A stretch of DNA of 36,072 nt from Akkermansia muciniphila. GTDB lineage: Bacteria; Verrucomicrobiota; Verrucomicrobiia; Limisphaerales; UBA9464. The stretch lies in assembly GCA_945861075.1 (NCBI GenBank), contig CAMATE010000002.1, forward strand, positions 1-36,072, written 5' to 3'. The notes beneath the pieces are model-generated. The model searched no databases, was not told the DNA's origin, and saw only the letters and a list, made by a program, of their open reading frames with translations. Below are positions 10,788 through 34,416 of this stretch, piece after piece (position 1 is the stretch's first letter; each line of letters opens with the position of its first letter). Made by a program: the position numbers and the translations under genes.

Positions 10788-12491
10788 ATGAACCGTCTCC
10801 GAAAACTGCTGGGCCACCTCATCGTGTGGCTTTGCCTTGGTTTGGGTCAGGTATGTGCCGATGGCGCCGATGACGCCTTCATTCGCATTTACAACCTCAT
10901 CCAGCAGGCCGATGCGAATCGGGAGACAGGCCAGTGGTCTTCGGCCCGCGACGCGTACACCGAGGCCAAATCCGGCCTGGAGGTGCTCCGCCGCAACTAC
11001 CCAACCTGGAACGAGCGGGTGGTGGCCTATCGGATCCGTTACGTAACCGAACGGCTGGAAACCCTGAAAACCAAGCCAGAAGCCTCTGAAAAACCTGTGA
11101 CCGCTCCGGGAACGGGGGCACCGGTCGCATCCAATGCGGCACCGGCCACGGCTCTGGCACCGAATGGCGAAGTCATCGCCCAATTCGAGCAATTGAACCT
11201 GCAAATCCAGCGCCTCTCGTCCGACAAGCAATTGCTCGAAGCCAAGCTGCGCGAAGCCCTGACCGCCCAACCTGCGCCCGTCGATCCCAAGGAATTCCAG
11301 TCGGCCATTGAGCGGATCACTGCCCTTCAAACCACCAACAAGGTGCTGCTGGCCTCACTCGAGCAGCAACAAATCGAGCGCCGCAATCTGGTCGACAAAG
11401 TCGTCGCCGATGAAGCCCGTGCCGCCCTGAACGAGGCCAGCAAGAACCTGCTGGAACAAAAGGTCGCCGCCAGCCGCATCGAAAAGCAGAAGCAAGAGGT
11501 CGAAACCAAACTCAAGGAACTGCAAGACGGAGCACTGCAAAACCTCCAAAAGGAGAACTCCACCCTGAAGCAGCAGGTCACCGAACTCAAATCGGACACT
11601 GAGCGCGGCAAACAAGTTGCGGACCTATCCGCCAAATTGACCCAACTCCAAATCGACCTCGACGACACCAAAAAGCGCAACACGGCCTTGAACTCCGAAA
11701 AGGCAGGGCTGGAAAAGCAATTGGCCGAATTGCAGGCCCGATCCTCCGAGGAAAGCCTGGCCAAGATCCGACAACTCGAAAACTCCCTGGCCCTGGCCAA
11801 GGCCAACACCGAACGCAGCATGGCCAACGCCGAATTGATCGCCGGCACGTTGGCCAAGGAAAAACAGGCCCGCACGGACCTGGAACTGTCCAATCAGGCA
11901 CTCAAGACCAAGGTCAGCGAACTGACTCGGGGAGCCGATCAGCGAGCCGAAGCCGTGAAGACCCTGGAAACGGCCTTGGCCGCAGAAAAGACCGAACGCG
12001 AGGTCATTCGAGCAGAACTCGTTGCCACGGAACGCAAGTTGGCCGCGGCCACCAGCGCTGCCACCAACTCGACCGCCGTGGATGCGAATGTCCGTGCCAC
12101 CGAAGTCTCCACCCTCCGGACCGAGGTTTGGAAACTCCGAGCTTCACTCAAGGAAGGATCAGCCCGTGAGGTGGAGCTTCGATCTGCCTTGTCCACCGAG
12201 CGCGAATTCCGTGAGCGACTGGCCCGTGAAAAGGCCGCACTCGAAAAACGTCTGGCAACCGCCCTAAAAGCAACCCCAGCCACCGAATCCCCCATCACGT
12301 CCAAAGACACCTCGAAGGCTTTGGCCAAAATGGAAAATCGGGTCCGGAAACTGGAAGAAGAGCGCGATGCTCTTGAGCAGCGCCTTCAGAAACTGAGCCA
12401 GACCACCCAGAACCGATTGCCCACCGGAGCGGTCTGGCGGGCGGTGACCGCCCGGGAACAAGTCGAAGAGTTCCATCGCCGGCGCCGCTGA
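10788..12491 (+). CDS. Secreted or anchored long coiled-coil protein, function unknown
   Basis: 567 aa. N-terminal signal/anchor MNRLRKLLGHLIVWLCLGLGQVCA. About 70 aa of helical, TPR-like sequence follows (AFIRIYNLIQQADANRETGQWSSARDAYTEAKSGLEVLRRNYP). Then a P/A/T-rich linker, about 400 aa of E/K/Q/L/A-rich heptad-like sequence, and a basic tail HRRRR. I recognise no family. Confidence 0.7.
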   Translation: MNRLRKLLGHLIVWLCLGLGQVCADGADDAFIRIYNLIQQADANRETGQWSSARDAYTEAKSGLEVLRRNYPTWNERVVAYRIRYVTERLETLKTKPEASEKPVTAPGTGAPVASNAAPATALAPNGEVIAQFEQLNLQIQRLSSDKQLLEAKLREALTAQPAPVDPKEFQSAIERITALQTTNKVLLASLEQQQIERRNLVDKVVADEARAALNEASKNLLEQKVAASRIEKQKQEVETKLKELQDGALQNLQKENSTLKQQVTELKSDTERGKQVADLSAKLTQLQIDLDDTKKRNTALNSEKAGLEKQLAELQARSSEESLAKIRQLENSLALAKANTERSMANAELIAGTLAKEKQARTDLELSNQALKTKVSELTRGADQRAEAVKTLETALAAEKTEREVIRAELVATERKLAAATSAATNSTAVDANVRATEVSTLRTEVWKLRASLKEGSAREVELRSALSTEREFRERLAREKAALEKRLATALKATPATESPITSKDTSKALAKMENRVRKLEEERDALEQRLQKLSQTTQNRLPTGAVWRAVTAREQVEEFHRRRR

Positions 12492-19873: not shown

Positions 19874-21283
19874 TCACCGCCGTGACGACTCCGCTTCGGC
19901 CAGAGATCGGATGTGGTTCAGCACCCGGGCGTGGATCCGGTGCAAAACGGCGTCGGACCACAGGCGCCAGTAGGACTCGGGCAGCAGCCCATGCTGATAC
20001 CAAGTGGTGCCCACCAACCGGGTGCCGCCGTCGTCGGTCGGCTTGAGTTCAAACTGCCCACGCTTGGAAACCAGAAACCCATCCAGGTGGGGCGGATGGA
20101 TGTGGCGATACGGCGTCCACTCCTCCATCGGAGCCGGATAGGCAGTCACCGAGAAGGCCAGCCTGCGCGGCTCGTCCCAGACTTCGATGGGCTCCACGAA
20201 GGGCCCCGTGGAGAACTCGCAATACCGGATGGCACCCACACCGCGCCCTTCGAGTCGCGCCCGGATCGGATAGGCGATGCCCGTCTGGAACATCCACTCG
20301 GTCGGCGGCGGCAGGTCTGAGAAAGACACCACGTGCCGCCACACCGTCTCCGGCGGTGCGGCGATCGTCACTTCGGTAACCACCGGGCGGATCTCCGGCG
20401 GACTTCGAAAACCCCACTCCGTGGCCACGACCAGCGGCAGGAACAAGATGCCCGCGCTGAAAAGCCGCCCTTCCTGCATGCGACGAACCCAGCGCTGTGA
20501 AACAAGCATTTGAGCCAGCGTGCTGCCGATCACGGCCAAGACCACCGCGATGGGGGAAGCCATCAGGAGGCAGATCAACCCCTCGATGGCTGCCATGATC
20601 AGGATCCCACCCAACAAGGCCAAAGCCGCCAGGGTGGCCAGGATCGATTCCCGGGGCGTCCGGAGTTCATGGTGGTTGTGAACCAGGGTGGTCAGGAAAC
20701 CGATCAGCAGGGGCAGCGCGACGAAAAGCGCCCATCCATAGGCTTCCAAAAATTGGGTGATCAGAAAAATCGACAAGGCACCGAACACGGCCGAAAGGAG
20801 GGCTCCGACGGCGGCCGCTCCCCATCGACCCCGAGGAATCCATCCAAACCACCGGGACGCCTCCCCCGACAAACGGGGTGGGATGGGAGCATTCACCCCT
20901 GCGGCATCGGGCAGAGCAACAAGCAGCAGTGCGAAGAGGAACTTCACCACGGGCACGAAAAACAACAACGCCCAAGCCACGGATCGCCCCATCGCCCGGA
21001 GGCGGCCGGCAGTCAGCGCGAGTCCAGCCCAGACAAACGGCAAGGAAGCCGCCAGCAATGGCCCTGCCCAAGACAAGTCCTCGCGGTTTGGCAGGACTCC
21101 GCCCATCACCACGCCCCAGATGTGCCCATTGAAAGAACGCCCCAAACTCTGGAGCACCCACCGATCCACCCCTTGCTTGAGAACCAAGCACACCAGCAGT
21201 GCCACGAAGAATTCCAAACGGCTGACCGATGCCTGGAAGCGCAGAACGCTCGACACCCATCGGAGGCGGGACCACGGTTTCAT
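19874..21283 (-). CDS. Polytopic membrane protein: DUF805-like N-terminus fused to a C-terminal SRPBCC domain
   Basis: The ATG at 21283 overlaps the upstream stop (ATGA 21280-21283), giving 469 aa. N-terminus: SRLEFFVALL...LALTAGRLRAMGRSVAWALLFFVPVVKFLFALLLVALP (DUF805-like). About 4 more TM segments follow. Then VVTEVTIAAPPETVWRHVVSFSDLPPP...IRYCEFSTGPFVEPIEVWDEPRRLAFSV...GGTRLVGTTWY, a START/polyketide-cyclase-like fold. Confidence 0.7.
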   Translation of the reverse strand: MKPWSRLRWVSSVLRFQASVSRLEFFVALLVCLVLKQGVDRWVLQSLGRSFNGHIWGVVMGGVLPNREDLSWAGPLLAASLPFVWAGLALTAGRLRAMGRSVAWALLFFVPVVKFLFALLLVALPDAAGVNAPIPPRLSGEASRWFGWIPRGRWGAAAVGALLSAVFGALSIFLITQFLEAYGWALFVALPLLIGFLTTLVHNHHELRTPRESILATLAALALLGGILIMAAIEGLICLLMASPIAVVLAVIGSTLAQMLVSQRWVRRMQEGRLFSAGILFLPLVVATEWGFRSPPEIRPVVTEVTIAAPPETVWRHVVSFSDLPPPTEWMFQTGIAYPIRARLEGRGVGAIRYCEFSTGPFVEPIEVWDEPRRLAFSVTAYPAPMEEWTPYRHIHPPHLDGFLVSKRGQFELKPTDDGGTRLVGTTWYQHGLLPESYWRLWSDAVLHRIHARVLNHIRSLAEAESSRR

Positions 21284-21726
21284 GGAGTTTCCAAGAAGGT
21301 GGTGGCGGCCAAGTGACGGCGGCGAGTCAGTTCCAGCGGGGGCAATGAGCAGACGTCTCCCAGGCAATAGCGGTTTCGGGCGACCCACTGGTAGACCCAT
21401 CGGGTCATTGCATGGAGACCTGGGGTCACCATGAGCACGCCCAGGGGCCACAGCCAAGCCACACGCCGGCACATCCAGGCGATGGCGACGGGCCCTCCCA
21501 GGATCCGACCATCCGGAGTGAGGAGCTTCATTTCTCCGGGAAGTTCACCGACCGCCAATCCCAACCGTTCCCGGACCCAAGGAGACTGAAGGGCTGCAAA
21601 CTCGATGTGCCGCGCCTCGAAAACCCGCCTCCAACGGCCAATGGTCGCCCGGCACACGGGGCAACGGTGGTCATAAAAGGCCCACGCGCCCGACGGCATC
21701 GAGACTGGGACGTTTTTTTCGGTCAT
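21280..21726 (-). CDS. DCC1-like thiol-disulfide oxidoreductase (DUF393)
   Basis: WAFYDHRCPVCRATIGRW carries the family's YDxxCxxC motif near the N-terminus. Size (148 aa) and the C-terminal Y.WVARNRY pattern also fit. Confidence 0.8.
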   Translation of the reverse strand: MTEKNVPVSMPSGAWAFYDHRCPVCRATIGRWRRVFEARHIEFAALQSPWVRERLGLAVGELPGEMKLLTPDGRILGGPVAIAWMCRRVAWLWPLGVLMVTPGLHAMTRWVYQWVARNRYCLGDVCSLPPLELTRRRHLAATTFLETP

Positions 21727-27696: not shown

Positions 27697-28815
27697 TTAG
27701 TCCTGGATGTTCACCATCTCCAAAGCGCCCACGCCACCCGGGTTCCAGGCGGTGAAGAGGATGTACACCTTGGCGCTGCGACCCTTGCCGACGACATACC
27801 AGCAGGCGTCATGCATGTGCTGGGCGTATCCGTAGCCAAGGTCTTCCTTGGGCTTGATGGTGCTGACCACGGCCTTGGTCTTGAGGTTGATGATGTAAAT
27901 GGGGCCCGGGGTGTTGTTCGGGCCGGTGAGGCAGGGCACCAGGAGGTAATCGCCCCAGAGATCAGTGTCGCAGGCGGCACTGCCCTTGGGCAACTGATGG
28001 ACAGCCAGAGCCTTGCGGGTCTTGGGCGACCACTCGTGGACCTGAGCCTCCGGCCGGGCCGAGACATAGAGCTCGTTGCGCTTCGGATCAAAGGTGATGC
28101 CGTGCGGCGTCTGGCTCATGCTGTCGCCACCGTAGAAATTGCCCCGGTACTTCATGGGCTTGGCATCGGCATCCATGAACCAGTGACGACCGTAGCCGTC
28201 GGTCACCCACAAGGTCTTGTCGCCGGCGAACGCTGCGTCGGTCGGAGCCCAGCCCTTCTTGTCGGCGTAAGGACCACCATCGGGGATCTTGAGCTTTTCC
28301 ACCGTGCGGAAGGTCGTGTCGGACAAGAGGATCTCGCCCTCGACATTGTCGGCCGCGACCACCAGCGGGAGCTGGCCCTTGCGCGGGAAGAGGTCGGCCC
28401 CGTGCAAGTTGCCCGAGGCGATGGACGGATCACCCTTCACCACCCAGGAGGTCTTGAGACGATCGCTGAAACCCACCCAACCCACCTTCTCGAGGCCCCA
28501 GTACACCACATCGCGCTCGCTATCCACGATGAGTGTGCCGTGAGCACCCTTCACGAAGGATTGAGCTTCGACCGGCACGGGCATCGCGTTGGTGACCGGG
28601 GCGAATTTCCAGAAACCCTGACCGCTGACATGCGACACGGCCGACTTGGCCTGGGCTGCGGGCGCCTTCACCGGACCCTTCTTCTCGACCTGAAAGGTCA
28701 CGGGCACCGCGGACGGTCCGTGGTCGTGGGGCTTAGATCCCGTGTCATGAGCCAGGAGAACGGGGGCGGAAGCCAAGGCGGCATACGCCACGGCCAGAGT
28801 GAGGGAGGTCTTCAT
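27697..28815 (-). CDS. Secreted beta-propeller (NHL/six-bladed-like) protein, function unknown
   Basis: ATG 28815 gives the signal peptide MKTSLTLAVAYAALASAPVLLA, followed by HDTGSKPHDHG. Repeated blade-like segments are visible (LHGADLF, WVTDGYG, PHGITFDPKRNELYVS, YIINLKT). The fold call comes from pattern only. Confidence 0.5.
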   Translation of the reverse strand: MKTSLTLAVAYAALASAPVLLAHDTGSKPHDHGPSAVPVTFQVEKKGPVKAPAAQAKSAVSHVSGQGFWKFAPVTNAMPVPVEAQSFVKGAHGTLIVDSERDVVYWGLEKVGWVGFSDRLKTSWVVKGDPSIASGNLHGADLFPRKGQLPLVVAADNVEGEILLSDTTFRTVEKLKIPDGGPYADKKGWAPTDAAFAGDKTLWVTDGYGRHWFMDADAKPMKYRGNFYGGDSMSQTPHGITFDPKRNELYVSARPEAQVHEWSPKTRKALAVHQLPKGSAACDTDLWGDYLLVPCLTGPNNTPGPIYIINLKTKAVVSTIKPKEDLGYGYAQHMHDACWYVVGKGRSAKVYILFTAWNPGGVGALEMVNIQD

Positions 28816-28888
28816 AGGCGACGTGCAATCTTTCAACAGCCGATCGGATTCTGTCGAGGCTCAGAAAGAACGGATCCGAGGAGACAGT

Positions 28889-29278
28889 TCAGAACGGATC
28901 GCGCAAGGATCCGTAGCCTTTGGATTGAACCCAACTCGATCCCGAACGCGACACGTCCAGCGGACGCTTGCCGAACAGGCGCATCAGGAAGGCCAGTGGC
29001 ACCACCGCAATTCCATACACTCCCAGCAACAGCAGGAACACCAGCCGCCCACCCAGCCAGGATCGCATCCGAGAAAACCCTCGGTGCCAGGGCTCAAAAA
29101 GCGTCGGAAACAACATGCCCAATCCCACCGCCACGGGCATGACCGTAAGATAAACCCGAGGCGAGCCCGGAACCCAACCAGCCCGATTGGCGATCATGAG
29201 CAGAGCCACCGGAGGAATGAGCGACGCGCCGATGGCGAATCGGTCGCGAAAGCTTCTGACGGTTTCGGGTCGGCTCAT
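28889..29278 (-). CDS. SxtJ family small membrane protein
   Basis: 129 aa, starting 2 nt after the carbamoyltransferase stop. Three hydrophobic segments are followed by VYGIAVVPLAFLMRLFGKRPLD. This matches my recollection of the SxtJ family (..P...LMRL.GKDPL). Confidence 0.7.
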   Translation of the reverse strand: MSRPETVRSFRDRFAIGASLIPPVALLMIANRAGWVPGSPRVYLTVMPVAVGLGMLFPTLFEPWHRGFSRMRSWLGGRLVFLLLLGVYGIAVVPLAFLMRLFGKRPLDVSRSGSSWVQSKGYGSLRDPF

Positions 29279-29280
29279 GG

Positions 29281-31107
29281 TCAGTCCGGGATGGCTTCGA
29301 AGCTGCGCGGCAATGCGGCATGCGGTTGCCGTTCACGTTCCAAATAGCAAGGACCGACGGCGAGCACATCGATCTGGGAATTGATGAAGCACCGATAGGC
29401 ATCCTCTGCGGAGCCCACCACCGGTTCCCCCCGCACATTGAAAGAAGTGTTGATGAGCACCGGGCAACCGGTCCTCGCCTCGAACCGCTTCAGCAAGGCA
29501 TGGAACTGCGGGTTGCGCTCCGCATCCACCGTCTGGACCCTGGCCGATCCGTCCACATGGGTCACCGCCGGCAGGGTCGAACGCACCTGCTTCAGACGAT
29601 CCAAGCCCTCGGCCTCGCGGGCCACGGGAATGCGTTGGGCATCGGCCACCGGAGCCACCAACAACATGTAGGGCGACTCGCCTGAGAGTCCGAAGAATTC
29701 CACCGACCTCTCGGCCAGCACGGCCGGGGCAAAGGGCCGAAACGATTCGCGAAACTTCACCTTCAAGTTCATGCGCGACTGCATGTCGGGGCTGCGCGGA
29801 TCCCCCAGAATGGAGCGGTGCCCCAGCGCGCGCGGACCAAATTCCATGCGCCCTTGAACCCATCCCACCACCTTGCCGGCGATCAACGCGTCAACAACGC
29901 GCTCCGGCAACGCCTCCGCGTCCAGTCGTTCCCAGACCGCGTCCAAACGTTTCAAGGAAGCCTCCACCGCTTCCGGAGATTCTTCTGGCCCCAGGAATCC
30001 CCCGCCCATGGAGTCGGAGGCGGTCGGGGTTCGCGGAGCGGCCAAGCCACCGCGTTCCAGCGGCCCATACCAGGCTGCCAAGGCGGCACCCAGGGCAGCC
30101 CCGGCGTCGCCGGCAGCGGGCTGGATCCAAAGTTTCTCAAACGGCCCCTCCCGCAGAATCCGACCATTGGCCACGCAGTTCAGGGCCACCCCACCGGCCA
30201 GACACAAGTGGGCCGAGCCGGTTTGTTTGTGGGCGCGTCGGGCCAGTCCCAAAAGGGCCCGTTCGGTCACCCCTTGGATGGATCGCGCCAAGTCGAGATG
30301 GCGTTTTTCCAGAGGCTCATCCGGACGACGGGGCGGCCCACCGAACCGGTCATGAAAACGCGCATTCGTCAGGTGATCCTCGGCCAGTGGATCCAAGTAC
30401 TCCAAATTGAGCCGGAAGGAACCGTCCTCATGCAGGGAAATCACCTCTTCCAAAAGGGTCTCCACCCAGCATGGCTCGCCATACGGTGCCAGGCCCATGA
30501 GCTTGTACTCGCCGGAGTTGACGCGGAATCCGCAGTAGGCGGTGAACGCCGAGTACAAAAGCCCCAGCGAATGGGGAAAATGGATCTCCTCCAAGGGCTC
30601 AATTTGGGCACCGGATCCTCGGGCGATGGCGGTGGTGGCCCATTCTCCGACGCCATCCACCGTCAAGATGGCCGCCTCAGGAAAGGGCGACGCAAGGAAC
30701 GCACTGGCCGCATGCGCCTCATGATGGGTGGTGAAGAGGATCGGGCACTCAGACCGCAGCCCGGGCAGCGCGGATCGGATGCGTCCACGAAGGTCCAAGC
30801 GTCCGCCCAACCAATCCGGAATAGCCCGGGCAAAAGCGCGACCTCCCCGAGGGGCCCAACCCAAAAACACCTCCAAAGTCCGGCTGAACTTCAGGATGGG
30901 TTTCTCGTAGAAGGCCACGGCTTCCAAATCGCGGGCGGTGATACCCGCCTGATCCAGACAGGACCGAATGGAACGTTCTGGAAACCGCGCATCATTCTTG
31001 CGACGCGACAATCGTTCCTCCTGCACCGCCGCCAGAATCCGTCCATCACCCAAGAGGGCTGCGGCCGAGTCGTGGTACAAGCCCGAGATGCCGAGGACGT
31101 ATCGCAT
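29281..31107 (-). CDS. NodU/CmcH-family carbamoyltransferase (SxtI/TobZ-like)
   Basis: MRYVLGISGLYHDSAAALLGDGRILAAVQEERLSRRKNDARFPERSI, the metal-site motif TTHHEAHAASAF, LAGGVALNCVANG and the C-terminal INTSFNVRGEPVV are the family's hallmarks. 608 aa. Confidence 0.92.
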   Translation of the reverse strand: MRYVLGISGLYHDSAAALLGDGRILAAVQEERLSRRKNDARFPERSIRSCLDQAGITARDLEAVAFYEKPILKFSRTLEVFLGWAPRGGRAFARAIPDWLGGRLDLRGRIRSALPGLRSECPILFTTHHEAHAASAFLASPFPEAAILTVDGVGEWATTAIARGSGAQIEPLEEIHFPHSLGLLYSAFTAYCGFRVNSGEYKLMGLAPYGEPCWVETLLEEVISLHEDGSFRLNLEYLDPLAEDHLTNARFHDRFGGPPRRPDEPLEKRHLDLARSIQGVTERALLGLARRAHKQTGSAHLCLAGGVALNCVANGRILREGPFEKLWIQPAAGDAGAALGAALAAWYGPLERGGLAAPRTPTASDSMGGGFLGPEESPEAVEASLKRLDAVWERLDAEALPERVVDALIAGKVVGWVQGRMEFGPRALGHRSILGDPRSPDMQSRMNLKVKFRESFRPFAPAVLAERSVEFFGLSGESPYMLLVAPVADAQRIPVAREAEGLDRLKQVRSTLPAVTHVDGSARVQTVDAERNPQFHALLKRFEARTGCPVLINTSFNVRGEPVVGSAEDAYRCFINSQIDVLAVGPCYLERERQPHAALPRSFEAIPD

Positions 31108-31128
31108 GGTGAGCCGTGGATCCGCGGT

Positions 31129-31281
31129 TCAGAGGAAGGGGTACAAAAAGGGCGCGACCGCCGAGCTGGACGAAAAGACCACCACCGCCCCAATCAACAG
31201 CAGGATCAGGATCAGAGGCGCGAGCCACCATTTTTTCTCCCGACCGAGGAATCGGGCAAAATCTCGAAGGAGGGACCACAT
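31129..31281 (-). CDS. DUF5989 (SxtK-like) small single-TM protein, 50 aa
   Basis: Below the track cut-off; hand-translated base by base as MWSLLRDFARFLGREKKWWLAPLILILLLIGAVVVFSSSSAVAPFLYPFL*. The pattern F.+.RKKWWL.P....LLL.G.L......SAVAPFIY matches the DUF5989 family as I recall it. Its ATG shares one base with the upstream stop (TGATG, 31279-31283). Confidence 0.75.
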   Translation of the reverse strand: MWSLLRDFARFLGREKKWWLAPLILILLLIGAVVVFSSSSAVAPFLYPFL

Positions 31282-33677
31282 CAGCGTTTGCGGGTGTTGG
31301 AAGTTTGCGGTGCGGTGGAAAGCATGCTGCGGGCCCGCTCCAAATAAGTTCGAGCCGAGGCATTGCCCGGTTGAGCGCGCAAGGCCGCCTCGAACTCCAC
31401 GATGGCATCGGCGAAGCGAGTCTGCCGAGCCAAGGCCACACCCAGATCCGTGCGAACGGACGCATTCAAAGGATCCAACTGAGCGGCACGACGCAGGACC
31501 GCCTCAGCCTGAGTCGGGCGATCGGCCCGCCCCAGTTCTCCGGCCAATCGCTGCAAGATCACCAGATTGGAAGGCTCACGACGAACGGCTTCTTCGAAGG
31601 CCGCAACGGCCGCGGGGTATTCCTTGCGACTCGACAGCAATTCGCCCAATCGGACGCACGGCAGTGTCGACTGGGAATGCTCGGTCATGGCCCGCGACAA
31701 CAAGGGCACCGATTCATTCCGACGACCCATGGCTTCCAGCGTCACTGCCTTGTTGATGAGCGCCTCCAAATTTTTCGGATCCCGTTTGAGGCTTTGGTCG
31801 AAGACCGCGATCGACTCCGGGAACCGACCCAATTCGCCATACAACTGCCCCAGCGCCAAAGCTGCCTCGACAAAATCCGGACGCAGCGCCAAGGCGCGCG
31901 ACTGGGATTCGACCGCCGCGCTACGAGCACCCACTTGAGCCTGAGCCTCGCCGAGGAAATGCCAGGCCACCACATGATCCGGAGCCCCCTCAACGACCCG
32001 ATTCCAGGCCTCAACCGCATTGGTCCAACGTCGCCCCTGACGCAGCAGCCGGGCCGACTGTTCGGCCAGTTGCCAATCATTGGGATGCTTCGTCAATACG
32101 GCCTCGACTCCCTGAATGGATGCACCCAAACCCACTTTTCGGGCTCCACCATTGGCCTCGGCCAACCGGTCGTCCAAGAATCGGTCCCGCGCCTCCCGGT
32201 GGCTTTGCAGCGAAAACGGCGGCTTCTGGCACAACGACCGGATTTGCGTCCACAAACGAACCTCGGCATGCGGATTCCAACCCAGACGCGTGCGGCACAA
32301 TGCCTCAGCAGCCACAACCGGGGGCTTTGCAGCGCCAGGTTCGGGCAACCGCCCCACCAAGGCCTGGGTGAACAAACGGGCCAACCGATCATTGCCTTCG
32401 GGCCTCAAGTGGACGTGCTCGAAGAAGAGGTCCGCACCCGGAGGACGTTGCGGATCTTCCCCTTTGAGTTGGGCTGCCGCATCCACCAGCAGCACCTGAG
32501 TCGAAGCCGCCGCGGCCGCCACCTCACGGGTGATGGCCACGATGCGGGAATCGGCACGAAACCGCAGCGTGTCCAGATCGCGGGCCGCCTCGAGATCGGC
32601 GGTTCCTCGAGCCATGTCCCCGGCGTTGAGTCGCGCCAAACCCAATTGGAAACGGCTCTCCGCATGGCGCGGCACGAGGGCCACAGCCTTGCTCCAGTTT
32701 TCGACCGCTCCAGCCCAGTCACCGGCCGCATCCTGAGAGCGGGCATGGTCCGACAAGGCTTTCCAGTCGTTGAGCAAAGCACCTGAACCCTCGATGGGCA
32801 CCGACCCAAACGGCGGACAATCCGGGAGGTTCACGGCCATGGTTCCCAGCAGCACCTGCGCCCCGGACTCGACACCGAAGCGCACCAAGTCGGTCAGGTT
32901 GCGTCGGTAAGCCTCACGCACGGCTTCCAAACGCGGGTCATCGGCGGCGATGTGATTCTTGGAAAAGGTCTCGAGCCCAGCCCAGCGTGGGGCCAGCGAC
33001 ATGCCATCGCCCTGTCCCTCCTGGATCCGGAAAATCCACTGGCCCAAAGCCGTGCTGCGCAGCAACAAACCGGCGCGAACCACGGCCAGCGACGGAGCCT
33101 TGCCCAGTGGATTGCTTGCCGGACCAAAGGGGCCGTGAACCTCGTTGTTGCCGGGATAAACCACCCAAACGTCGGCTCCCAACCGCGCAGAATCCGCGGC
33201 AATGCGGCGCAGCGCATGGGAATTCAAGGCCGTGATCGCCGCGTTGAGAACCTCGACCTTGCGCCCCGGAAATCGCGACTCCAATTGCGCCTGGAGAAAG
33301 CGCGGCATGCCAAATCCCGGTTCGGGATCCCCCAAGGCCGCGGATTCACCCAAGACCAGGACCCGCAGCGTACCCGTTTCCTTCTTCTCACGGATCTTCA
33401 GCGGCCGGGGCATTCGCGCCAAAGTCTCGCCGACATACGGAGCACCAAAAGCCGGATTGGCCCGGAGCATTCCCTCACCGGCCTCCAACCAGAAGGCGGT
33501 GGGCCTGTAATGTCCCAGAGCCCTCAACGTCAGTTCGGCACCCAACAACGCCAGCACCGGCGCCAAAACGGCCAATCCACGGAAGATCCAGAGCCGCCGG
33601 GAATCCGGAGCGGCGCGGGTTTCCACGGAGGCTGGAGAACCATCGGAGGGCATGGCCTCAGAGGATTCTGGAGCCAC
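31281..33677 (-). CDS. N-terminally anchored SGNH/GDSL-like domain protein with TPR repeats
   Basis: 798 aa, starting at GTG 33677 or ATG 33653. TM anchor LWIFRGLAVLAPVLALLGA. SGNH-like blocks: RVLVLGESAALGD (block I), VVYPGNNE (block III) and FFEHVHLRPEGNDRLA (block V-like). TPR-like helices lie between the blocks (aa ~305-370), and about 7 TPR-like repeats occupy aa ~530-785. Confidence 0.7.
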   Translation of the reverse strand: MAPESSEAMPSDGSPASVETRAAPDSRRLWIFRGLAVLAPVLALLGAELTLRALGHYRPTAFWLEAGEGMLRANPAFGAPYVGETLARMPRPLKIREKKETGTLRVLVLGESAALGDPEPGFGMPRFLQAQLESRFPGRKVEVLNAAITALNSHALRRIAADSARLGADVWVVYPGNNEVHGPFGPASNPLGKAPSLAVVRAGLLLRSTALGQWIFRIQEGQGDGMSLAPRWAGLETFSKNHIAADDPRLEAVREAYRRNLTDLVRFGVESGAQVLLGTMAVNLPDCPPFGSVPIEGSGALLNDWKALSDHARSQDAAGDWAGAVENWSKAVALVPRHAESRFQLGLARLNAGDMARGTADLEAARDLDTLRFRADSRIVAITREVAAAAASTQVLLVDAAAQLKGEDPQRPPGADLFFEHVHLRPEGNDRLARLFTQALVGRLPEPGAAKPPVVAAEALCRTRLGWNPHAEVRLWTQIRSLCQKPPFSLQSHREARDRFLDDRLAEANGGARKVGLGASIQGVEAVLTKHPNDWQLAEQSARLLRQGRRWTNAVEAWNRVVEGAPDHVVAWHFLGEAQAQVGARSAAVESQSRALALRPDFVEAALALGQLYGELGRFPESIAVFDQSLKRDPKNLEALINKAVTLEAMGRRNESVPLLSRAMTEHSQSTLPCVRLGELLSSRKEYPAAVAAFEEAVRREPSNLVILQRLAGELGRADRPTQAEAVLRRAAQLDPLNASVRTDLGVALARQTRFADAIVEFEAALRAQPGNASARTYLERARSMLSTAPQTSNTRKR

Positions 33678-33693
33678 CCCTCCGGCTGCAAGC

Positions 33694-34416
33694 CTACTCG
33701 TAGGATTTGAGCTTCAGGAAGGGGATGATGCGCTTTTCGAGCATGGGCAAATCCCACTGCAGGATTTCCGAAAGCGGCGCGGCATCGGCCACATCGAAGC
33801 GACCGCTGGTGACGCGGCGCAACCGAGTGAGGTGGGCTCCGCAGGCCAACTTCTGACCAAGATCATGAGCCAAGCTCCGGATGTAGGTCCCCTTGGTGCA
33901 ACTCACCCGGAAATACGCAAACGGTTCTTCGTAGTCGTCGAACCGATAGGTGTACACATGGATGGGTCGAGGCACACGGGCGACCTCTTGTCCCTTGCGG
34001 GCCAACTTGTAAAGAGGGGTGCCACCGATCTTGACCGCACTAACCATGGGCGGGGTCTGAAGGATGTCTCCGGTGAAGGCAACCGCCGCTTCGTTCAAAT
34101 CGTTCAACGACAGCGGGGGCACCGGCATGGAGTCCACCAGTTCTCCGTCGGCGTCGTAGGAATCGGTTGTTTCACCCAACCGCATGACGCCCTCGTACAC
34201 CTTGTCCGAAGACATCAGGCGCTCCGAATATTTGGTCGCCTTGCCCAGCACCAGAATGAGCAGGCCCGTGGCCATTGGATCCAGCGTTCCACAGTGACCC
34301 ACCTTGGGCAGGCGGAAGTGGTTGCGCAATTTGGCGACCACGTCATGGGAGGTCCATGTCGCAGGCTTGTCGACCAATAGAGCCCCATCGAGGGGCGAGA
34401 GAGTGGGAATGGCCAT
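33694..34416 (-). CDS. truB: tRNA pseudouridine(55) synthase
   Basis: GALLVDKPATWTSHDVVAKLRNHFRLPKVGHCGTLDPMATGLLILVLGKATK...QTPPMVSAVK match TruB. Confidence 0.93.
   Translation of the reverse strand: MAIPTLSPLDGALLVDKPATWTSHDVVAKLRNHFRLPKVGHCGTLDPMATGLLILVLGKATKYSERLMSSDKVYEGVMRLGETTDSYDADGELVDSMPVPPLSLNDLNEAAVAFTGDILQTPPMVSAVKIGGTPLYKLARKGQEVARVPRPIHVYTYRFDDYEEPFAYFRVSCTKGTYIRSLAHDLGQKLACGAHLTRLRRVTSGRFDVADAAPLSEILQWDLPMLEKRIIPFLKLKSYE

Follow-up and report, generated by a model that had tools for sequence, protein, structure and literature searches.

In published gene tables of the saxitoxin (sxt) cluster, the carbamoyltransferase gene sxtI (1839 bp) is followed in order by sxtJ (405 bp), sxtK (165 bp), and sxtL (1281 bp), the last encoding a 426-aa GDSL lipase. 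The sxt literature gives SxtL a putative role in decarbamoylation and has SxtJ and SxtK acting "in conjunction" with SxtI or in regulation, and reviews dated 2009 to 2020 label SxtJ, SxtK, and SxtL as unknown, regulatory, or decarbamoylase. Here we analyzed a 36,072-nt stretch of bacterial DNA (contig CAMATE010000002.1 of assembly GCA_945861075.1, positions 1 to 36,072; hereafter the window) that carries, on its minus strand, genes for an SxtI-like carbamoyltransferase (CT), a putative SxtJ-family membrane protein, a DUF5989 microprotein resembling SxtK in size and position, and an SGNH enzyme with C-terminal tetratricopeptide repeats (TPRs). The first three genes are referred to below as I, J, and K.

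Carbamoyltransferases of the NodU/CmcH/TobZ family convert carbamoyl phosphate and ATP to carbamoyl-AMP and then transfer the carbamoyl group to an acceptor hydroxyl; in TobZ, NodU, and CmcH this transfer is made directly to the final acceptor. A second group of systems relevant to this locus comprises the MBOAT relays, of which AlgJ, AlgX, and PatB1 are SGNH partners. In DltX, and likewise at the C-terminal end of PatA-type MBOATs (FIYANF in NgPatA), the hexapeptide FXYXXF serves as an acyl shuttle: the invariant Tyr of the motif, on the extracytoplasmic side, takes the acyl group from the MBOAT and delivers it to the catalytic Ser of DltD or PatB, the SGNH partner (PMC12148441).

In our assessment, these four genes very probably constitute a single conserved functional module, equivalent to sxtIJKL. 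The best reading of what this module may do, to which we assign a probability of roughly 45%, is a Dlt-like relay that dispenses with an MBOAT and carbamoylates an extracytoplasmic acceptor. Existing annotation covers the gene families and the adjacency of I, J, and K (a RefSeq Planctomyces plasmid names the trio as carbamoyltransferase, SxtJ family membrane protein, and DUF5989 family protein), and the triad itself is not new. As far as our literature searches show, the cross-phylum tetrad, its conservation gradient, its gene fusions, and the DltX/PatA-type Tyr tail are undescribed: the searches returned no paper mentioning DUF5989 or the SxtJ family outside sxt clusters, none combining the shuttle motif with carbamoylation, and no characterized function for the module. 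An earlier reading of the window made from its letters (the sequence-only reading) had likewise held that the module has no experimentally defined function, and we found none characterized in the searchable literature.

Conservation of the Module Across Phyla

Six module-associated CTs were aligned and used as the query in a scan of one genome for each GTDB species, which gave at least 598 confirmed stretches among at least 600 candidates, and the best 80 loci were analyzed. These 80 span Verrucomicrobiota, Gemmatimonadota, Acidobacteriota, Nitrospirota, Planctomycetota, Bacteroidota, Rhodothermota, Alpha-, Beta-, and Gammaproteobacteria, Deltaproteobacteria-type lineages, Chloroflexota, Omnitrophota, Cyanobacteria, and one Paceibacterota genome, and the window CT is 52–63% identical to them despite this range of bacterial phyla. 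The loci were searched with hidden Markov models (HMMs) built in this analysis, and linkage was scored in those 62 loci where the CT gene had flanks of 900 nt or more in both directions. SxtJ and DUF5989 genes were both present within 1.5 kb of the CT gene in 47 of these 62 loci and at least one of them in 57; eight loci had SxtJ only, two had DUF5989 only, and five had neither. Gene order was I-J-K in 32 of the 80 loci, J-K-I in 12, and K-I-J, as in the window, in four, the rest being partial sets or rarer orders. The window arrangement SGNH-K-I-J is a Verrucomicrobia-type variant. A check of co-occurrence and conserved order across genomes, which the sequence-only reading had proposed, bore out the linkage of CT, SxtJ, DUF5989, and SGNH genes across phyla and placed the window order in only those four of 80 loci.

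When as many as three flanking genes per side of I/J/K were clustered for 88 loci, a single large recurrent family emerged, the SGNH family, with 41 proteins from 35 of the 88 loci (median length of 411 aa), 28 of the 41 being immediately adjacent to the block. It holds both the Verrucomicrobial SGNH-TPR proteins and, from other phyla, TPR-less ones of ~400 aa. With a profile of the TPR-less members, 27 genome loci proved to have an SGNH gene no more than 400 nt from I/J/K; 37 of the 68 loci carrying J or K had one anywhere in the locus. The unit is thus a tetrad, not a triad, with SGNH as its fourth conserved member, and because the GDSL lipase gene sxtL follows sxtI-J-K, the SGNH gene is most simply taken as the sxtL counterpart. 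The sequence-only reading had described a triad in which an SGNH-TPR protein was embedded; the CT/SxtJ/DUF5989 set stands as described, and the SGNH protein is to be counted as a member rather than an extra.

The four families differ in how strongly they are conserved. Mean pairwise identity over 36 four-gene loci was 61% for CT, 51% for DUF5989, 28% for SxtJ, and 19% for SGNH, a gradient that would be expected if the immediate partner or substrate of the CT were constant while the SGNH enzyme adapted to differing acceptors. At ~60% identity across phyla, the CT is one of the most conserved accessory enzymes in this analysis, and the searchable literature names no substrate for it; to our knowledge, divergence is much greater among carbamoyltransferases that modify varied acceptors directly.

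Some module copies are surrounded by glycan or exopolysaccharide genes. The copy on the Planctomyces plasmid adjoins exosortase and EpsI genes, and another (L003) lies among genes for a sugar epimerase, an aminotransferase, and sulfate activation. At a Cyclobacteriaceae locus (L007:1948-3412), genes for a UbiA-family prenyltransferase and a HAD hydrolase come after I-K-J, possibly a lipid or polyprenyl context. A complete module is present on pSymB of Sinorhizobium meliloti 1021 (NC_003078.1, ~482.2–486.4 kb), with the SGNH gene divergently transcribed and then J-K-I. There (L090, NC_003078.1 477586-493364), as at two Verrucomicrobial loci, L005:1-2230 and L006:3569-5676, a HisKA_3 histidine kinase and a GerE/NarL-type response regulator adjoin the module; a two-component system was considered as a module feature and rejected, the HisKA_3 and GerE/NarL pair occurring in only three of ~90 loci.

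The DUF5989 Microprotein and Its C-Terminal Tyrosine

The window DUF5989 protein matched PF19451 with an E-value of 2.4e-18 (66.4 bits; gathering cut-off 27). Members of the family have a basic N-terminus with R/K-K-K-W-W-L-x-P, one transmembrane (TM) helix, and an uncharged C-terminal tail of ~14 residues, and the invariant residues are, in window numbering, F11, K16, K17, W19, L20, P22, and Y47. A Tyr occupies position −4 in 66 of 67 DUF5989 tails and is offset by one residue in the remaining one, and the pattern F.Y..[FLM]$ fits 59 of the 67. The last six residues are FIYTLF in 32 tails and FIYTIF in 12 (together 44 of 67) and close variants of these in the rest, including ALYPFL in five Verrucomicrobia-type copies. 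The DUF5989 tail accordingly matches the acyl-shuttle motif of DltX and PatA. The likeness to DltX is one of size, architecture, motif, and an anchored SGNH partner, with no detectable sequence homology.

The SGNH, CT, and SxtJ-Family Proteins

In the SGNH-TPR protein, Pfam matches were strong for TPRs and reached an E-value of only ~2e-3 for GDSL. An AlphaFold2 (AF2) model of residues 1–520 (mean predicted local distance difference test, pLDDT, 82.8) has an N-terminal helix followed by an alpha/beta domain, for which Foldseek returned GDSL esterases, acetyl-xylan esterases, and the peptidoglycan O-acetyltransferase PatB at target TM-scores of 0.57–0.72. Model and structural matches together confirm the predicted SGNH fold of the 798-aa protein despite the weak Pfam GDSL match. 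Residues of block I (G110-E-S112), block III (G176-N-N-E, with N178), and block V (E420-H-V-H423) are invariant in 28 relatives, and throughout the cross-phylum SGNH family the Gly and Ser of block I and the His of block V show little or no variation. The TPR part gave partial NCBIfam matches to scaffolds of the PrsT, PgaA, BcsC, and LapB type, and the array thus resembles, at the level of these profiles, scaffolds of polysaccharide export systems. Fusion to TPRs is confined to Verrucomicrobia-type loci; a profile built from 31 TPR-less SGNH members matched the window protein with an E-value of 1e-12.

An N-terminal hydrophobic segment is present in 29 of these 31 members, with 2.9 K/R residues on its N-terminal flank and 1.8 on its C-terminal flank (a weak positive-inside bias). 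A search of PDB sequences with the full-length SGNH-TPR alignment was swamped by TPR proteins and was repeated with the non-TPR family, whose profile matched AlgJ (7.8e-14), AlgX (7.9e-10), and PatB1 of B. cereus (8.8e-5), its best matches being generic GDSL esterases. Pfam ALGX was matched by 12 of 22 SGNH members and Lipase_GDSL_2 by 19 of 22. Two or three SGNH-family paralogues stand beside one I/J/K set, in tandem at L002:5394-8022 and L013:5862-8212 and on both strands at L083:8833-12976, which hints at several acceptors served by one donor system.

The window CT matched Carbam_trans_N (PF02543, E-value of 1.9e-82, residues 4–343) and Carbam_trans_C (PF16861, E-value of 3e-70, residues 406–590), that is, a Kae1-like N-terminal and a YrdC-like C-terminal domain in one chain. 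Its match to the NodU equivalog model of NCBIfam (NF041651) was partial, at 135 bits against a cut-off of 1000, and the CT is thus not a NodU orthologue. At a Nitrospira locus, a second, divergent CT paralogue (L034:10506-12350; E-value of 2e-90 to the CT profile) lies ~1 kb downstream of I-J-K. The only cyanobacterial locus among the best 80, from Planktothrix (L076:6989-8926), has a solitary CT gene, 53% identical, with no SxtJ, DUF5989, or SGNH gene within 5–7 kb. At a Pyrinomonadaceae locus (L085:6998-9214), CT and SxtJ share one frame of 739 codons with no stop, which is either a fusion or an assembly error.

The 129-aa protein had no match to Pfam SxtJ (PF19588) or to NCBIfam, even at an E-value of ≤10. 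A profile of this protein and its close homologues found 52 relatives at E ≤1e-3 among 1.8 billion representatives, and in a 41-sequence alignment of the window protein, 37 profile-found relatives, and three locus orthologues, PF19588 was matched by 33 of the 41 sequences (best E-value of 1.8e-15). The score of the window protein against the SxtJ family HMM (5e-32) is not independent, the window sequence being inside the model. Its gene begins 2 nt after the CT gene, and the corresponding genes also directly follow CT in L001, L005, and L006. The 129-aa protein is therefore, by transitive evidence only, a divergent member of the SxtJ family. The family assignments of the sequence-only reading fared accordingly: those of DUF5989, CT, and the TPRs were upheld by Pfam, and that of the SGNH domain by AF2, Foldseek, and profiles; SxtJ failed by direct HMM and holds via intermediates.

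An AF2 model of the 129-aa protein (pLDDT 76.7) has three membrane helices, the last of which runs on into an amphipathic segment, and hydropathy and charge counts are ambiguous on topology. A 531-aa protein (P0252) joins an SxtJ domain (residues 27–125), a basic linker, a further TM helix, and an SGNH domain with GGS, GTND, and DSVH motifs, and its SGNH part scored 7e-16 against the module SGNH family profile. Taken together, the CT::SxtJ and SxtJ::SGNH fusions imply that both SxtJ termini would be cytoplasmic.

Genomic Context of the Window Locus

The window has ~62% G+C, and homologues of its proteins carry Verrucomicrobiota names (Pedosphaera, Limisphaerales). Positions of the five minus-strand open reading frames (ORFs) and their parts are collected in Table 1. 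The SGNH-TPR gene has a GTG start (798 aa) and an alternative ATG at 33653 that would give 790 aa; database relatives use the ATG start. Its stop overlaps the DUF5989 start in TGATG (31279-31283), DUF5989 is separated from CT by 21 nt and CT from the 129-aa gene by 2 nt, and the 379-aa gene follows after 52 nt (TTG start) or 73 nt (ATG start). The five ORFs, the overlap, and the spacers are all as the sequence-only reading had described them. The truB stop lies 16 nt before the GTG and 40 nt before the ATG of the SGNH-TPR gene (33653-33694), and thyA starts 40 nt past the end of the 379-aa gene; truB and thyA share the strand of the five genes, so that tight spacing is not special to the five genes.

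TABLE 1. Features of the module locus and their positions in the window.
Feature	Position	Strand	Basis or remark
NodU/CmcH/TobZ-type carbamoyltransferase, 608 aa, SxtI counterpart	29281..31107	-	Pfam
DUF5989 microprotein, 50 aa, SxtK-like by size and position	31129..31281	-	PF19451
C-terminal hexapeptide F45-L-Y47-P-F-L50 (FLYPFL)	31132..31149	-	FXYXXF except for final Leu in place of Phe
Membrane-anchored SGNH enzyme with C-terminal TPRs, probable SxtL counterpart, proposed terminal transferase	31281..33677	-	Pfam, AF2, Foldseek
N-terminal hydrophobic helix, ~residues 26–53, read as signal anchor	33519..33602	-	AF2 model; orientation presumed
SGNH catalytic domain, ~residues 95–445, with helical TPR-like insert	32343..33395	-	AF2, Foldseek, invariant residues
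C-terminal TPR array, ~residues 520–798	31284..32120	-	Pfam TPR_2/11/16/19
Divergent SxtJ-family membrane protein, 129 aa, three hydrophobic segments	28889..29278	-	Transitive profile evidence, position
379-aa protein, signal-like N-terminus, not a conserved module member	27697..28836	-	Weak NHL match

The stretch infB-rbfA-DHH-truB-...-thyA is entirely co-directional, and since truB is so close, the module may, in this lineage, share a transcript with the housekeeping genes infB-rbfA-truB. A promoter and terminator scan gave counts at shuffle background and says nothing on the operon. The remaining window genes are housekeeping genes (infB, rbfA, DHH, truB, thyA, ribF, accC, PhoH, and argA-like), which agrees with the earlier placement of the module outside any toxin cluster, and no biosynthetic genes were found across the 36-kb window or the 25.6-kb contig of a close relative, L088, on which the other ORFs are likewise housekeeping genes. 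The latter is syntenic with the window from infB to PhoH, and its SxtJ protein is 82% identical. Two further window ORFs have little or no family assignment. A 567-aa ORF at 10788-12491 (+) has no Pfam match at E ≤1e-5, and the 1-kb bin around it (11001-12000) shows strong AT skew (0.40). A 532-aa ORF at 19874-21472 (-), directly upstream of the PhoH-like gene on the same strand, has as its sole Pfam match a C-terminal SRPBCC/Polyketide_cyc2 domain (E-value of 1e-6).

The 379-aa protein had been taken for a secreted beta-propeller. A signal-like hydrophobic N-terminal stretch is visible by eye, one NHL repeat scored below threshold (E-value of 4.5e-3, 17.4 bits against a cut-off of 20), and a search of PDB sequences gave no match, so that its sequence neither supports nor excludes a propeller. 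An orthologue is present only in L088, with no Pfam match on record, and other genes occupy the position in L001, L005, and L006. Beyond the one weak repeat these proteins are effectively an orphan family, and the gene is not conserved along with the module.

A Candidate Carbamoyl Relay and Its Alternatives

In the relay that we favor, the CT would make carbamoyl-adenylate from carbamoyl phosphate and ATP, as family knowledge of TobZ suggests, and would do so docked at the membrane on SxtJ, to which the one in-frame CT::SxtJ fusion points. The carbamoyl group would then be placed on the invariant Tyr of the FXYXXF-type DUF5989 tail, and the aryl carbamate so formed would carbamoylate the catalytic Ser112 of the SGNH domain, which would in turn carbamoylate an exported envelope polymer at a hydroxyl or an amine, with scaffolding by the TPR array. 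An aryl carbamate on Tyr would be competent to donate its carbamoyl group to a serine hydrolase, and hydrolysis of carbamoyl-serine enzymes is slow, so that, by inference from carbamate inhibitors, transfer would be favored over hydrolysis. A cross-membrane modification pathway had been argued from protein topology in the sequence-only reading; it agrees with the present findings, and the Tyr motif makes it more specific. A bolder version, in which DUF5989 and SxtK are DltX-like carbamoyl-Tyr shuttles, SxtL-type SGNH enzymes are the true terminal carbamoyltransferases, and both form with SxtI and SxtJ an MBOAT-independent relay in many phyla, is distinctly more tentative, and we would not at present expect it to hold in full.

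A number of observations weigh against the relay. The window hexapeptide FLYPFL and the ALYPFL tails of most Verrucomicrobia-type copies depart from FXYXXF, the DUF5989 profile gave one chance-level match among PDB sequences (E-value of 2.6) and no DltX chain, and none of 26 DUF5989 members convincingly matched another Pfam family, DltX included, at E ≤10. There is no MBOAT or evident conduit and no invariant His across the SxtJ family, which leaves the crossing of the carbamoyl group to an extracytoplasmic Tyr unexplained. All of the module topologies are predictions. The modeled three-helix SxtJ would be hard to square with both fusions unless one segment is non-spanning, and the CT::SxtJ and SxtJ::TM::SGNH fusions have each been seen once, in a metagenome. 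An SGNH gene lies within 7 kb in only ~60% of the I/J/K loci with good flanks, and some CTs of the clade are solitary, as in Planktothrix (L076). Finally, the carbamoyl group in saxitoxin biosynthesis goes to a small molecule, and the function proposed for SxtL is that of a decarbamoylase, not a transferase.

In a simpler scheme, the CT directly O-carbamoylates one conserved membrane-bound or lipid-linked substrate at the inner leaflet, SxtJ and DUF5989 tether or activate the CT, and the SGNH protein is an external decarbamoylase or a de-O-acylase that would free the hydroxyl of the acceptor, an explanation that we consider possible, if doubtful. Direct transfer to the final acceptor is what the characterized CT relatives do, the sxt literature casts SxtL as a decarbamoylase and SxtJ and SxtK as regulatory or acting "in conjunction" with SxtI, a CT::SxtJ fusion suits a simple tether, and in structure the SGNH domain matches hydrolases best. 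No SGNH gene lies nearby in about 40% of the I/J/K loci with good flanks, and the CT/J/K core can for that reason work without an adjacent one. Carbamoylation at the inner leaflet accounts neither for an invariant Tyr at position −4 of a tail that is uncharged and probably extracytoplasmic nor for the AlgJ/AlgX/PatB-type affinity of the SGNH family, and a tether would have no need of 51% identity between phyla when the esterase has 19%.

Two further explanations concern the extent of the pathway. The secreted 379-aa protein could be a functional fifth component, e.g., a beta-propeller that binds or processes the acceptor, and its gene is on the same strand only 52–73 nt downstream, an arrangement kept in L088, whose SxtJ protein is 82% identical. 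Retention there says little, however, given synteny from infB to PhoH, the propeller itself rests on one sub-threshold NHL repeat, and more distant Verrucomicrobia and all other phyla have unrelated genes at that position; we regard a five-gene pathway as improbable. Still harder to credit is that the module tailors a secondary metabolite, carbamoylating a small molecule whose other biosynthetic genes lie beyond the window. The only studied I/J/K/L instance does sit in a toxin cluster, but neither the window nor the L088 contig has biosynthetic genes, the neighbors are housekeeping genes of translation and nucleotide metabolism, and many bacterial phyla carry the module, in surroundings that have nothing in common.

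Should the MBOAT-less relay prove true, carbamoylation would join the short list of extracytoplasmic envelope modifications, the acyl-tyrosine shuttle principle would work without an MBOAT, and SxtJ, SxtK, and SxtL would gain concrete, testable roles. If the shuttle reading extends to saxitoxin producers, the step from decarbamoylsaxitoxin (dcSTX) to saxitoxin (STX) would take place outside the cytoplasm, SxtL would not be a decarbamoylase, and the parts played by SxtJ and SxtK would be accounted for. The full module on S. meliloti 1021 pSymB makes genetics and mass spectrometry possible in a model organism.

Comparison With Known Systems

Set beside the Dlt (DltA/C-DltB-DltX-DltD), PatA/PatB, and AlgI/J/F/X relays, the module has in common with them a cytoplasmic ATP-dependent activating enzyme, a one-TM microprotein of ~50 aa with an FXYXXF-type end and an invariant Tyr, and an SGNH partner with a predicted N-terminal anchor and with Ser and His, whose family is akin to AlgJ, AlgX, and PatB1. 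It differs in having no MBOAT, in the proposed transfer of a carbamoyl rather than an acyl group, in an SxtJ protein that has no counterpart in the relays, and in the absence of detectable sequence homology between DUF5989 and DltX, and it is known from sequence alone. Pfam gave no MBOAT match among the five window proteins, and clustering found no recurrent MBOAT among the flanking genes of the 88 loci, over which no explicit MBOAT model was run.

With TobZ, NodU, CmcH, and NovN the CT shares the architecture of Carbam_trans_N (Kae1/ASKHA-like) and Carbam_trans_C (YrdC-like). Those enzymes are soluble, stand-alone, and act on small-molecule acceptors, whereas members of the CT clade are on average 61% identical across phyla and nearly always accompanied by two small membrane proteins.

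The closest counterpart is the sxtI-J-K-L block. Unlike the sxt cluster, the window has no SxtA-type polyketide synthase, amidinotransferase, or dioxygenases and places the module in a housekeeping context, and its order is SGNH-K-I-J instead of I-J-K-L, with a TPR fusion on the SGNH protein and an SxtJ protein too divergent for Pfam. Compared by size, annotation, and position only, the SGNH protein is probably the SxtL counterpart and DUF5989 is probably SxtK-like. The functions of J and K are undefined in the sxt block and in the module alike. The two are alike in protein types and sizes (~610, ~134, ~54, and ~426 aa in Sxt), and the published sxt order is the same as the commonest non-toxin order, I-J-K, often then followed by SGNH.

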